From Vermamoeba vermiformis (Eukaryota): 64,000 nt of DNA. The DNA lies in NCBI GenBank assembly GCA_045837725.1, contig JBEWZL010000278.1, forward strand, positions 248,001-312,000. Direction: 5' to 3'. Position 1 is the first letter of the stretch; the number at the start of each line of letters is the position of its first letter. The position numbers and the translations under genes are program-made. The notes below the pieces were generated by a model. That model worked only from the letters and a program-made list of their open reading frames with translations. It was not told the DNA's origin and ran no database searches. This document shows, one piece after another, positions 22,887 to 29,388 of the stretch.

Positions 22887-23575
22887 TTACTGAGCAGTCT
22901 TAACGAGAGTAGCGCGCAAGTGTTGTTGATTGGGCTGTTGCACTGCTGCCATGCTGAGCGTGACTTGTAGCTGGTCTCCATTCCACACATAGACGCGTTG
23001 TAGCTGCGCGACTTGTTTGGCCGTGCTAGTGAGGCCAATGCTGCGCGAAGTAGTGCTGAGAGTGAGCGGTGAATACAGCGGCAAGTCACCTTCAGCTACT
23101 TCCGATACACCTGCAGCATTGTTAGTACTGAATGTTTTGGTGCACCAAACAACCACAGTACCTGAATTATGTGCGATCACGAATTGCGCGTCTAATTTAG
23201 GGCCTTTATTGGGCAACAGCGTCAAGAAGCCTGACTCGAAGTGCATTGGCTTGTCGAAGTTTGGTTGGCCGTCTTCAGCGACAGCGTATGATTTCTTGCA
23301 AATATTATTTTGTATAATTTTCAAAATTAATGTCTTACTTGATGATATTGAATGATCGGTTTGGAGGGCAGCGCTTCAAATCTGAAATATTCAAATTTTT
23401 AATTAATTGAGATTATTCGTGATCGAACCTACTTTGTCTCCTCCCAATATTTAAAATTGGTTATCGTAGGATAGCTTCCTTCTCCAAAGCCAGTGTAAGT
23501 GCCGAGGATAGAGCTGACTTTCTGCAATGACGGATGCAATTCTGTTTGCACGGGCGCGGGTTGTTTACTGCACAT
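22887..23575 (-). CDS. Nitrobindin / THAP4-like heme-binding beta-barrel (DUF1794)
   Basis: LHPSLQKVSSILGTYTGFGEGSYPTITNFKYWEE, PMHFESGFL, IAHNSGVSEVAEG and QQHLRATL. Confidence 0.85.
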
Positions 23576-23907: not shown

Positions 23908-26559
23908 ATGATATTACTCGTTAATCTTGTCAAAGTTCTGTTGGGAGTTTTGGCTGGATCCACTTTGGTCTCCGGTACATTTATTCCCGCAGGTCAAGTC
24001 GAAGTCTGTACACAAGTGAATGATACATTAACGTGAGTATATTATTTATGAAGAAAATTATTAGGTACTGATTTTGTACTAGTTGTCGCAACAAATTTTT
24101 GATTATTGGCTACGTGACCGATTACTCCGCCGACTGGTCTGTGCAGTTCATGTTAAATGCTAGTAAGTATAATATGGGACAATACATCTTGTTATAGATC
24201 TAATGATTAACTAGACACTACTTATTTGGATCAGTACAAGAATGTGTGGCAGCTGAATCGGCCGATTTATCTGACTGTGCAGGCTCAAAATCAGCGAATA
24301 GGTGCGCAATAATATGACTGTATTAATATTACATGGCTTATTGACTTGTCAGAATATGGTTTGACACCGCTCGCTATAAACAAGAACGCGTATCAAACAT
24401 TGAGCAACTACTATGACGTGGGGTCAGTACAGCAGGCCTATGTTACTGTCATTTATAACATGTCCTAATCATTATAACGTCCTAATCAACGCCATATTCA
24501 GCTTCTGTCCCACCAATGCCTATTGTTGCAATGGACAGAGTGGTCGCTGGGCCTTCAAATACAATCAAAACAGCACTGACTACTACACATTTGCGATCAA
24601 ACCACCCAAGTTTGTGGTACGCTGAGTACTATCATATTATAGTATGCCACTCTGCTCACCTGTCTGCAGTTCAATGTCGTCATCACCGCCACACAAGACT
24701 CTGTCACGCGTCAATTGACACTGAACGAGTCGCGCATGAATGCCTCACTTGCCTGCTGTCGATGTGAGTACTGCGCGTGCAATTCTATTTGACAGCATTG
24801 TAGTGTAACTCTCATCATGCAGGCGAGTGTGTTGCTCGCAGTGCCCAATGCGCTGCTGATCGACTTTGGCCTCTATTACACGCTCATCAGCACACCTGAC
24901 ACGCAGCTCAGTGAAGGATTTTTAGTGCCCAAATCAGCGCTGAGCAGCGAGGTGAACAAGATTGGTGTCACTTATCAGAGCTACTTTCAGAAGCTCAGTG
25001 TGGAGAATGTGAACTGCGTGCCGATCGTCGATGGCTATTACTTTGCGGTCAATGGTGGTCCGCCCTACGATCAGTTCGCCACATTTAGGAATGCACGTGT
25101 GAGTGACAGCTTGAACAACTGTCTCTACAGCACGTCACGCTCGTCACTCGCCTATTCAGCCAGTGCACGCGAGGTATGGCCGCGAGACTAGTCAGCGATA
25201 GTATATTAACAGCGCGCTAGTCCTTTTTGTGTCGCGATGCAGGGGTGACAGAAGTGCTGTTGGAGCTCGATGCCTCGGAGTTCAAGCTCGTCAAGCTGTA
25301 CGGTATACCTGTCGTCACGGGCAAGGGGCTGTTTCAGTTCGAGTACACTGATAGCTTTGCGCAGTTCTGTAAGGGCCAATACATGGTGTGATATGACACA
25401 TTGCTGATCACTGACAGATGTTGATGTGTCCAATCGAGCGACGACCAGCGCAGCATTCACCTTCACCAACACACGCTGTTGTTATGTCGTTAACAGCGCA
25501 CTTCAATGCAATGTAAGACACTTGTATCTGTTGTAGCGGCTTATAATATTAATATTACGCTCAGCAAAATGCACCGTTTGACGCACAAGTGACAGCTGCA
25601 GCACCACTCGACACTGTGCGCACTATACTGCCCTCACCGTCTATAGTAAGTTCTGCTATTGGGCTAGCGATCAGTCCTAATCACCCTCCCTATTAGTACT
25701 TCATCAGCGCGGCAGGACTGTGCGAGTTCATTCTCTCGCAGCACGGTGAGCAGTCATTGGCCTTCAACATCTCCTTTGACACCTCGTCCTGGTTTCAAAA
25801 CACTCAGCCCACCACTGCCGAATGTCAGCCTCCCTATACGCAGGTCATAGTCGATGGTGTCGCGTACTGTCAGAGTCCCTGCACCATTGACCAAATATGG
25901 AACAGTTCGATTGCGCAGTGTCAAGCAGTGAACTGTTTGCAGAAATATCTCGGCGCCAAGTCGTGGTACAACAAGAAGACTGGCCAGTGTGAGCCAGCAG
26001 CAGTGTGTTTGGAGGGCATCTATGACGCACTCAACAACCTCTGCATCAACAACAATGACATTCCCACCGCACCATTCGGCATCGATCCCAACATGACATT
26101 CCCGCCCTCCACTGCTGCACCTGCCGCGCTCAATTGTGGTCCGAATGGCGTGCCCGTGGGTGATGTGTGCAAGTGCAAGGATGGCTGGACCACACCGCAG
26201 TCAGGACCGCAAGTGAAGAAAGAAGATATTCCGTGGTGCAGCGAATTCGCGCAGACTCAGCTGGTGAATGTGCAGGGCGAGGACGAGATCAATCCCCTCA
26301 CGGTGGTAGGTACTGATAGCACTTGTATTGTATCGACTAACGGAACTAGATCTTGGTGTGCGGTCTTATCTTCTTGTTCTTGCTGTGCTGCATCAGCTGT
26401 TGCGTCTGTTGTCTCAAGAAGTGTTGTTGTTGCTGCAAATGCTGTCTCAAAGTGCGCAACAAACTGAAGCACTCCAAGATCGGTGGGAAGCTGCGCAAAT
26501 TGAAAGTGAAGCGAAGGAAAAAGAACAAAAGAACGCCCAGCACTGACGTCGAGAAGTGA
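23908..26559 (+). CDS. HAP2: Divergent HAP2/GCS1-like class II membrane fusogen (fusexin); 12 exons, about 690 aa
   Basis: Exons 23908-24032, 24083-24162, 24215-24301, 24353-24422, 24502-24616, 24670-24763, 24823-25173, 25221-25368, 25418-25512, 25565-25645, 25697-26305 and 26350-26559, with one extra nt near 24750. A signal peptide is followed by colinear HAP2-like motifs: GQVEVC..TCRNKFLI, LNRPIYLTV..YGL, YCC, YTFAIKPPKFVFNVVI, LVPKSALS.EVNKIGVTYQSY, TEVLLELDASEFKLV, FEYTDSFAQFYVDVSN..AAFTFTNTRC and CEFIL...ISFDT. Then a TM helix, a poly-Cys stretch and a polybasic tail. Confidence 0.78.
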
Positions 26560-26689: not shown

Positions 26690-29388
26690 TTATTTAGCAA
26701 TGCGCGATGCTTCTTCTGACTCGCGCAGTTCGTGTTCGGAGAGAGGTCTGAATTCGTAGTGACCCATGCCGTCAAACTTGAGCACGCGGTCGTGGTACTT
26801 CCAAACAGATTTGCGATGCGCGACGGTGATGACGGTGATGTTGAGCTGTTTGCAGCGCTGATACAAGAAGGCTTCAATGTCGAGTGACAGCTGTGACGTG
26901 CACTCGTCGAGAATGGCGAACTTGGGGCAGTGATAGAACAGACGCGCCATGGCAATGCGCTGCACATCAGGGTGAGTGACACGTGTCAAACAGCGAGCAG
27001 CAACGTACCTGTTGTTCACCCATGGACAGCACTTCATTCCAGTCGTTCTCTCTGTCCCAGCCCTCGCGCTTGACCAAGTAGCTGAGCTCCACTTCTTCCA
27101 TCAGGGCATTCAGCTTGGGATCGAGCTCTGCTTTCTCTGCTGCTGTGTACACCTGGCACGTGATTGGTCAGTACGTGACACGTGTCAAATAGCGGTGCGT
27201 ACCTTGATGTCGGGATAAATGATCTGATCGCGCAGTGTGCCAATCGTCAAATAGGGCTTTTGCGGGATGTAGAACATGGTGCTGACAGGTGGTCTGGTGA
27301 CAGTGCCGCGCTGAGAAGCGTCAGTGAGCACGCGATATATATACAGCACTTAGTATCGTACCTTGAGCGGCCACAGACCAGACATGATGCGGAACACACT
27401 CGACTTGCCACTGCCGTTCGGACCTGAGATGAGCAGATTGGTGCCTGGCGCCACTTCAAAAGTGAGGTCTGGCACGTGATTGGTTAGTGATTGAGGTCAA
27501 AGATTGACACGTGTCACTTACTGTCCAGCAACAGCACACCATCAGGCGACACCACCGCGACGTCGTGGAATGCAATATGTTCGCCAGTCAATCGCTTGGC
27601 CGTGGGTCCATCGCCAATCACCGTGTCGTCGTCGAGCACATTCAGCGCACTCAGACTCGTGTAGTGCGTCAACACCTCGCGCAGTTCTGACACGCGTGCG
27701 GTGTAGCCAGCGAGCTGCGTGATGTTCTTGTACAGCACAATCAGCTGACCAATCGCGCGTGCCAAGTTGATCAAGATGTGACTGTTGCGCACGTAGTCGC
27801 CTGTGATCTTCGAGGTGTCGAGATTTCCTTGAGATTTCCCTTTGCCAATGCTGCCGAACACAGGACCCGCGACCACAGCGTAGCCAATCATGGTGGCACC
27901 GTACTTGACGAGCCAGCTGTCAATGACGCCGAGCCAGGCCTGTTTGGTGAAGATGTTGCGCATGTGGCGGTAGAGGCGATCAAATGACACGTCCATCACC
28001 TGACGCTCTTTCTTTTGGCCACCAAAAAAGGCAATTTCTTCCGCGTAGTTGATGGCACGGCTGTGCACGTAGCGATAATCACCCTCCAAGCGCTGCTGTT
28101 CGGCAGTGAGGCGCGGGAAGGAGGGCATGATGAGACGCAGAATGAAGGCACTGATCGCGTAGTAGAGGTACATGGTGAAGGGGCCTGTCACGCCCACCAC
28201 TGCCGCTAGCTTGGCACTCAGCAGCACAATGTCCAGCACGGGCTGTGCGGTGTTAGTTCCATGGTGCTAGATACATATATATAGGTGTGTATATATTACC
28301 ACTGCGTACCTTGAATGTCGTGCCGTACACTGTCGAGAATGCTGTCGCGAATTTGTCCGTGTCCTGCGTGATGCGCTGATCGCTGTGTGACAGGTGTCAG
28401 TTAAAGTGTCAAAGTACAGTGCAGCGCGTGACACGTACATGTTGTCAATGTCCGAGCCCATGGATGACGCGCGATAGAACGCCATGCCGTTGAGATACTT
28501 CTCGTGCAAGTCACGTGACAGCCGTTGACGGAAGTTGAGCTGCAAGAGATTGGTGAAGTACTTGAGCGCGCTGTTCACCACTGAGGCCGGCACTGCAAAC
28601 AGCGCCAGTCGCAGCACACCGAGCACAAAGCCGCGCTGATTTCTGCTGACGAGCATGCGCGCATTGCCACCCGCTGCGAGAGGTCAGTTTGAGCACGATA
28701 GAGCGCACTTGTACGTACTGATTTCTGCGATCTTCAGCGTGAGGAATGTGCGCGCGACGAGGGCAATGGTGAGCATGAAGAGCTGAAAGGCCTCGCGCGA
28801 GAATGGACCGGGCACAATGACTTGGATCAGACGGATCAGCCGCACCAAGAATGTCGCATCCACCGCTACTTTGCGACGTCGAGGCACCGATTCAGTAGCA
28901 GCAGGACCTTGTGCTTGTTGAGGACCATTTTGAGTCACGCGCGGGTCCTTGGCCTCGTGACTGGATTTGGTGTAGAGTTCTGCTTGCTTGCGGTCAAACT
29001 CGCGTATTAAGCGCTTGATCTTGCGTGTTGCGAGCCATGTACCGCTGCTGGCGATAGATGCAGCCTATAATAGTATTATTAAGGATTATTCTAGACAGAG
29101 ACGCTATGCTTTGCTTTCACTTTAATTTTGAAGCAGATTTCGTCAAAACTTTATATTAGGGCCTGAATCTGCACCATGTATTATTTGTAATTTATTGTAA
29201 TACCAGCGACATTAATAATAATTGAAATTAACAACCAGAAAATTTCAAAAGCCAGCTGGGATCCAAAGAAAAACCAAAGCATTGCTATGGATTGTGATCG
29301 TATTAATATTGCATATGTATATTACCGATAATAGGACTGCTATCGTCTTTTTTCTTGCAGCGAGGTATTGTTGAATTTGTGTCGACAT
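26690..29388 (-). CDS. Peroxisomal ABC half-transporter, subfamily D (PMP70/ABCD-like)
   Basis: EAA-like motif [23 protein letters not shown], Walker [10 protein letters not shown], signature [17 protein letters not shown] and Walker B ILDECTS. Confidence 0.93.

Follow-up and report, generated by a model that had tools for sequence, protein, structure and literature searches.

Proteins of the HAP2/GCS1 family are gamete fusogens of the fusexin type (class II fusogens) that are covered over the whole ectodomain by one Pfam model (PF10699.14, 515 positions, gathering cut-off 27.4 bits) and are represented in eukaryotes by PDB entries from Chlamydomonas (5MF1, 6DBS, 6E18), Trypanosoma cruzi (5OW4), Arabidopsis (5OW3) and Cyanidioschyzon (7S0K). 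The nematode somatic fusogens EFF-1 and AFF-1 are also of class II, with a short and non-hydrophobic c-d loop, and act from both membranes, and the class II fusion loops of viruses carry Trp, Phe and Tyr. For the b-c-d region of HAP2, Fedry et al. (2018; PMC6089408) give nine invariant residues, namely seven disulfide-bonded cysteines, a Glu in strand b and an Arg in the c-d connection, and another study (PMC8777248) describes HAP2 tails as polybasic, with potentially palmitoylated Cys residues. Here we describe a spliced gene at positions 23908–26559 of a 64,000-nucleotide (nt) stretch of Vermamoeba vermiformis DNA (contig JBEWZL010000278.1, positions 248,001 to 312,000; hereafter the window), which, judging from sequence comparisons, probably encodes a HAP2/GCS1 family member that has diverged strongly.

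The gene was reconstructed on the forward strand with twelve exons joined at GT-AG introns, from an ATG at 23908 to a TGA at 26557–26559, which gives an open reading frame (ORF) of 2046 nt coding for 682 amino acids. The region has a eukaryotic character, its open frames being interrupted every 80–330 nt by AT-richer GT...AG stretches of 44–79 nt in which branch sites of the CTAAY/CTGAY type are present. A scan of metagenome contigs returned two relatives among 261 pattern matches, of which L002 covers the gene from end to end: all 11 intron positions are common to the two sequences, and L002 carries an uninterrupted frame of 683 amino acids with 75% identity to the window protein. The exons of the two genes align at high identity and the introns do not align. 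The coordinates 23908–26559 and the division into 12 exons, both proposed in a preliminary description of this DNA, were right, as the spliced model forms an open frame and its introns recur in L002. Exons 2 (24083–24162), 4 (24353–24422, GTCAGT donor) and 10 (25565–25645) were placed by the splice model and the L002 alignment; exon 3 (24215–24301) contains RPIYLT...RIEYGL and ends at a GTGCGC donor, the counterpart of which in L002 opens an intron with a GC-AG boundary (intron 3, L002 positions 1020–1074, GCGAGT). Between the window and L002, the ratio of non-synonymous to synonymous substitution rates (dN/dS) is 0.10 overall, with a dS of about 1.5 that is near saturation, and it is lowest, at 0.04, over residues 85–160, where the putative tip of domain II lies. 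The gene is under purifying selection.

RNA evidence came from runs X14–X16, which bear the same species label, and from contigs of the differently labelled run X9. It supports five of the 11 junctions (introns 1, 7, 8, 9 and 11), whereas introns 2–6 and 10, as well as exon 4, are devoid of read cover. The junction of intron 1 (24032 to 24083) is supported by three X16 reads and an X9 loose end, and that of intron 8, at the end of exon 8 (25221–25368), is present in two X9 contigs. The acceptor of intron 9 at 25565, downstream of exon 9 (25418–25512), is seen in X14 and X16, and intron 11 is supported by an X9 loose end together with X14 and X15 reads. A shorter exon 7, with a donor at 25099 and its end at 25098, was rejected because an X9 contig supports the intron 25174–25220 and hence an exon end at 25173. 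Read depth across the gene is low (0–4 in X14–X16). The gene is real, expressed and strongly conserved. The X14–X16 reads are mostly 90–99% identical to the window and the X9 contigs 95–99%; same-label reads at 90–95% identity therefore derive from a divergent strain or from a paralog, and the identity gap between the same-label runs and X9 suggests a species complex or mislabelling.

Protein relatives of the gene are few. Using exon 7 as query, phmmer gave four matches at E ≤ 0.001 among 1.84 billion representative proteins, two of them exon-sized fragments of relatives (P0001, 67% identity; P0004, 41% identity) and two of them spurious repeat proteins. P0003, a repeat protein of 1417 amino acids that matches exon 7 at E 6e-5, was treated as spurious, its match running through a four times repeated DGYY[FY]FVNAWP-like motif that resembles DGYYFAVNGGP. 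P0001 is 99% identical to P0005, which comes from another public record. The family is small, with five proteins at E ≤ 0.1 among 727 candidates, and its members come from uncultured lineages, at least three of them close and two distant. The N, K and G of an NKIG motif are invariant in all five members, as is an L-x-P upstream of it. The distant fragments, P0004 and P0007, are 32–34% identical to exon 7, apparently lack intron 7 and carry extra cysteines after their NK[IF]G motif, by which they may be nearer to the canonical HAP2 cysteine pattern. A search with exon 11 for longer homologous proteins found none among 473 candidates, and exon 7 gave no usable match in the ESM Atlas.

The predicted protein has the layout of a membrane-anchored surface protein. 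A hydrophobic leader at residues 1–22, predicted to be a signal peptide, is encoded by exon 1 (23908–24032) along with the start codon and the first Cys of an N-terminal motif. This motif, E-x-C-x8-C-x-x-K followed by a hydrophobic strand, occupies residues 32–49 (24001–24104) and spans intron 1. Exon 7 encodes NKIGVTYQSY (residues 229–238, 24955–24984), the counterpart of the HAP2 motif C[DN]KVG[VT].., and a domain III-like region (residues 313–438, 25254–25783) spans introns 8–10 and ends in exon 11 (25697–26305). It is followed by a Cys-rich, EGF-like stem of about 140 residues (~452–590, 25823–26239), the 12 cysteines of which are invariant in L002, as are the 12 cysteines of the ectodomain up to residue 450; the match of the stem to EGF_Teneurin is weak (E 0.024, below cut-off). 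Exon 12 (26350–26559) encodes a single transmembrane (TM) helix (residues ~613–635, 26350–26418), then a tail with 14 Cys and many Lys and Arg, and the TGA stop. The signal peptide, ectodomain, single TM helix and Cys-rich, polybasic tail that had been noticed earlier are borne out by hydropathy and by the composition of the tail, and hydropathy predicts a type I topology, as in HAP2/GCS1. Eight N-x-S/T sequons are present, and one beside the putative tip is kept in both orthologs. AlphaFold2 models of single exons had a predicted local distance difference test (pLDDT) score of 36.1 for exon 7 (alignment of five sequences) and 33.0 for exon 11 (two sequences), too poor for a fold search.

As HAP2 references we used two bacterial proteins, P0020 and P0028, along with the T. 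cruzi and Chlamydomonas PDB chains. Both bacterial proteins are database relatives of P0008, the first bacterial match, which covers positions 352–459 of PF10699 only; P0020 and P0028 match positions 2–476 of the 515 at 243 and 239 bits, and P0020 matches six PDB sequences of HAP2 (T. cruzi, Chlamydomonas, Arabidopsis and Cyanidioschyzon) with E-values from 4e-35 to 5e-18. From residues common to the four references we derived four regular expressions, one for the N-terminal strand (R1), one for the [DN]K[VI]G strand (R2) and two for domain III (R3 and R4). Once relaxed so as to admit the window protein, R1, R2, R4 and R3 find their counterparts in it at residues 32, 229, 356 and 418, and in P0020 at residues 58, 295, 423 and 477. 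The order is identical in the two proteins, and the NKIG strand and the N-x7-[YF] motif of domain III (R2 to R4) lie 127 residues apart in the former and 128 in the latter. Three of the four (R1, R4 and R3) also match L002, with R1 again at residue 32. Among 2106 control sequences (541,126 residues) the relaxed expressions matched PF10699 proteins only, and in 20000 shuffles of the ectodomain R1 matched once, R2 never, R3 27 times and R4 six times. These figures overstate the significance, since the patterns were widened after the protein had been seen. The motifs of HAP2 domain I and domain III thus occur in the order and spacing of the family, as read with expressions relaxed post hoc, and the motifs listed in the preliminary description are all present in the spliced translation. 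We consider this joint pattern the strongest argument for homology, because it agrees with the register chosen by the aligners and with the positions at which the family shows no variation.

The aligners find the corresponding region. The best high-scoring segment pair of BLASTP places residues 313–405 of the window protein on residues 265–354 of P0008, which is the part of P0008 matched by PF10699, with an E-value of 0.009 one-to-one and of 0.13 among 12 subjects (0.19 for L002). Smith-Waterman alignment with BLOSUM45 sets residues 217–438 collinear with residues 280–498 of P0020, with four gaps, from LVPK...NKIGV to ...FDT. The four comparisons of the window protein and L002 with P0020 and P0028 gave z-scores of 5.4, 3.8, 1.5 and 3.9 (Gumbel P 6e-4, 0.012, 0.11 and 0.011), and 1, 15, 180 and 14 of 1500 shuffles, in the same order, scored as high. 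Hidden Markov models (HMMs) of domain III from nine and from 18 bacterial HAP2s gave the window protein 6.9 and 6.2 bits in the right region, with three and seven of 3000 decoys as high, and an HMM of the window protein and L002 ranked P0008 third of 2106 local sequences (E 1.5). With five query sequences, hhalign produced a collinear alignment of 351 columns (P 0.033). Across methods and orthologs, the P-values for similarity to HAP2s span 6e-4 to more than 0.3.

A whole set of results weighs against placing the protein in the HAP2 family. Even at E ≤ 10, PF10699 matched none of ten window exon pieces, none of three from L002 and none of four family fragments, all searched as contiguous translations. 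PDB sequence searches with exons 7, 8 and 9 and with a four-sequence profile of exon 7 returned no HAP2, the sole match being a chance one (E 1.8), and HAP2 is absent as well from the four phmmer matches of exon 7 among the 1.84 billion representatives. None of the four strict regular expressions matches the window protein, and three of them also fail on P0028. An unrelated control, P0035, reaches z 5.3 in the Smith-Waterman comparison, as high as P0020. For L002, the domain III HMMs yield no significant score, 140 and 796 of 3000 decoys being as high, and the HMM of two full-length bacterial HAP2s is not significant (90 of 500 decoys as high); global alignments are not significant either. With the two orthologs alone hhalign gave P 0.31 (47 of 138 shuffles as high), and with domain III alone P 0.09 (23 of 165); for the exon 7 profile the corresponding count was 95 of 202 shuffles. 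The scores from HMMs and from profile-profile comparison lie at the noise level or close to it, and by calibrated statistics the similarity is at the limit of what can be detected.

In a different reading, the gene would encode a surface or adhesion glycoprotein that is specific to its lineage and has no relation to HAP2, the motifs being chance, post hoc matches in a β-rich, Cys-containing ectodomain. This orphan surface protein is the main rival to HAP2 membership. It would account for every calibrated profile method lying at or near noise, for the exon translations lacking a Pfam match, for the control that equals P0020, for the frequent lack of significance of L002 and for the tiny size of a family that is otherwise orphan. 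It fits poorly, however, with four motifs that stand in the right order at a spacing of 127 against 128 residues and that were found in none of the non-HAP2 controls, with unbiased aligners picking equivalent regions, and with the motif residues being the most conserved within the family. We therefore regard an unrelated glycoprotein as a real possibility, though an unlikely one, and HAP2 membership as the better reading of the locus.

If the protein is a HAP2, it departs from the references at the tip of its domain II. The putative tip is contained in exon 5 (24502–24616), the translation of which is 88% identical in L002, and reads FCPTNAYCC-NGQSGRWAFKYNQNST-DYYTFAI; it holds three cysteines only, a short aromatic loop and the conserved N-x-T sequon. 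From YCC (residues 128–130) to DYYTFAI (residues 147–153) there are 16 residues, so that the short c-d connection claimed earlier, at about 15 residues, is real; the distance from CC to the xxCL motif is about 40 residues in the Chlamydomonas and T. cruzi chains. Such shortness has a precedent, since only 11 residues separate CC from the d strand in bacterial P0020. An additional exon that would restore a long c-d loop was rejected, as a single exon contains the whole stretch and the introns on either side of it, of 79 and 53 nt, are not conserved. The connection itself is aromatic (GRWAFKY, with W, F and Y).

Several features of the tip and of the ij hairpin count, like the scores above, against HAP2 membership. 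Over residues 85–160, the b-d region, the only cysteines are C123, C129 and C130, the same three as in L002, against seven that are invariant in HAP2; of the nine invariant residues of Fedry et al. (2018), these three Cys are the only ones identified. As to the Glu and the Arg, the preliminary description had called the Arg absent, but a conserved R136 (in GQSGRW) and a conserved E98 may serve as the HAP2 salt bridge. The xxCL (AHCL) motif is missing in comparison with the references, as had been stated. The block of the ij hairpin, which the four references define as C-[DN]-K-V-G...C...C-L-x-x-Q-L, is not preserved: its leading Cys, present in all four, is a Val in the window protein, in agreement with the earlier remark that the Cys before NKIGV is missing, and the downstream C...CL.NQL is absent. 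The register of the tip is also disputed, as hhalign pairs FCP.NAYC with an upstream ICAENGAC and GRWAF with CGWTY, whereas the preliminary description paired YCC with GFCC; under either pairing no more than three of the seven cysteines are there.

The state of the tip also bears on what a HAP2 of this kind would do. A descendant of HAP2 might have ceased to be an autonomous fusogen, with a tip that no longer has the loops and disulfides that insertion requires, and might have become a repurposed adhesion or recognition protein, or the partner of a canonical HAP2 elsewhere in the genome. The three of seven invariant cysteines, the loss of xxCL and of the Cys of CxKxG, the low level of expression in ordinary cultures, and the existence in bacteria of HAP2 relatives whose c-d connection is shorter still (P0020, with its 11 residues, is anchorless and carries a dockerin) all agree with this view. 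The retention of a TM anchor and of a HAP2-like tail does not, nor does the fact that no other part of the protein is under as strong a constraint as the tip (dN/dS 0.04), with its W, F and Y, nor the lack of any second copy of the gene or other HAP2-like gene in the 64-kb window. A non-autonomous descendant is in our opinion improbable, and we return to a divergent HAP2 that would still act as a fusogen as the reading we prefer.

At the junction of exons 6 and 7 the window and L002 differ. Near 24751 (range 24749–24752), at the end of exon 6 (24670–24763), the window carries one base that L002 lacks. This base shifts the frame of the last four codons of the exon, and the frame does not stay open if the conserved donor 24764 and acceptor 24822 are used. 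In L002 the junction reads ...ASLPAVD followed by VSVLLAVPNGLL. The window keeps the same words, NASL and, one frame further on, PAVD, with ASVLLAVPNALL after acceptor 24822, but they are mutually out of frame. An acceptor at 24841, from which exon 7 would start at 24842, restores the ORF but yields a non-conserved 'ACCRL' and costs six residues, the coding sequence removed being that of ASVLLAV, which lies upstream of 24842 and is conserved in L002, P0001 and P0005. The exon 6/7 junction of the preliminary description is thus a frame rescue, in which the ORF survives only by deletion of conserved residues, and the ortholog form of exon 7 runs from 24823 to 25173. The second 'CC' (Cys188/189) is an artefact, because it results from the one-base shift; the YCC of exon 5 is unaffected. 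Either an error of the assembly or an allele of the strain could account for the extra base. A recent pseudogene, broken in this strain by the insertion, would explain why the frame is lost with the conserved splice sites and why the rescue through 24841 removes conserved residues. We nevertheless hold this to be extremely improbable, as there is no other defect across the 2046 nt, near-identical transcripts (X9 contigs, 95–99%) are spliced, and the base itself may be an assembly error in an interval, 24740–24843, that has no read cover.

The genes around the locus are ordinary. A coronin-like WD40 gene lies on the forward strand at 20.9–22.7 kb, and directly upstream, on the opposite strand, is an ORF for a heme-binding β-barrel of the THAP4/nitrobindin type (22887–23375). 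An ABC transporter of the ABCD type (ABC_membrane_2; 26690–29064, reverse strand) stands tail to tail with the HAP2-like gene, and RNA cover of its 3' end (26716–26800) is far deeper than that over the HAP2-like gene. A β-adaptin gene is found further away on the reverse strand (58.8–61.1 kb).

In bacterial genomes, PF10699 was detected in none of five named planctomycetes and none of 401 genomes of a phylum sample, in none of a pair of genomes, in one of 401 of a class sample, and in seven of 279 genomes of one order; these genomes served solely as a source of reference HAP2s. A set of bacterial proteins (L123–L129, P0008–P0017) matches only positions ~335–465 of the HAP2 Pfam model and is devoid of domain II. 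These matches without domain II come from seven of the 279 genomes of that order, in the sample of the class Phycisphaerae, and several of the proteins end in PPP-rich tails or coiled-coil-like extensions.

If the protein is homologous to HAP2, it would be a type I glycoprotein, an anchored member with a rebuilt, disulfide-poor tip, and its mode of action could be pictured as follows. Domain I would begin with the E-x-C-x8-C-x-x-K strand, and the tip of domain II would be reduced to the 16-residue aromatic c-d connection (GRWAFKY), held by three cysteines instead of seven. A HAP2-like domain III would come next, followed by a short stem of EGF-like character, a single TM helix and a polybasic, probably palmitoylated tail. 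The short aromatic tip would insert into the opposing membrane, as in HAP2; the protein would trimerise, and domain III and the stem would fold back, drawing the two membranes together in gamete or cell fusion. More tentatively, the window protein, L002, P0001 and the distant P0004 and P0007 may represent a separate fusexin subtype of several uncultured protist lineages from soil and freshwater, membrane-anchored and invisible to Pfam, which with a tip rebuilt on three cysteines and a 16-residue aromatic loop would fuse membranes in a way unlike canonical HAP2, for instance from both membranes or with a partner; we find this proposal doubtful as it stands. Bilateral action in the manner of EFF-1, the role of a HAP2 partner and cryptic sex in this protist are speculation.

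The identity of this protein matters beyond the locus. Were it a functional relative of HAP2 that escapes the family model, surveys would under-count the HAP2 family, and the gene would offer a natural experiment on the minimal size and disulfide content of a class II fusion tip. The organism and its uncultured relatives would likewise become candidates for undetected cell fusion. Should the fold turn out not to be of class II, the finding would shrink to an orphan surface protein.

Set beside the eukaryotic HAP2/GCS1 proteins, the window protein shares the type I topology, an N-terminal strand of the form E-x-C-x8-10-C-x-x-K right after the leader, an aromatic-CC motif, and a [DN]K[VI]GV[ST][FY] strand preceded by LVP[KR]. 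It further shares the Cys-rich basic tail and the domain III motifs N-x7-[YF], C-N-x-N..P and C-x2-x-L..G-x9-F, which follow one another as they do in HAP2 and at comparable distances. It differs from them in escaping the Pfam model at the exon level, in having three rather than seven of the invariant b-d cysteines and 16 rather than about 40 residues in the c-d connection, in lacking xxCL, the CxKxG cysteine and, further downstream, the C...C.L.NQL block, and in carrying a 10-residue, CC-containing insertion in domain III. The likeness to bacterial P0020 and P0028 lies in the very short c-d connection (11 residues in P0020 against 16 here) and in an identical C-x8-C spacing at the N-terminus, and these anchorless HAP2 relatives gave the best pairwise alignments obtained for the window protein. 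They keep all tip cysteines and strong PF10699 scores, however, have no TM anchor and carry dockerin or TSP3 modules at their ends, whereas the window protein is membrane-anchored and encoded by a spliced, eukaryotic gene. The analogy with EFF-1 and AFF-1 is that of the preliminary description; the loop of the window protein is aromatic (W, F and Y) and not acidic.

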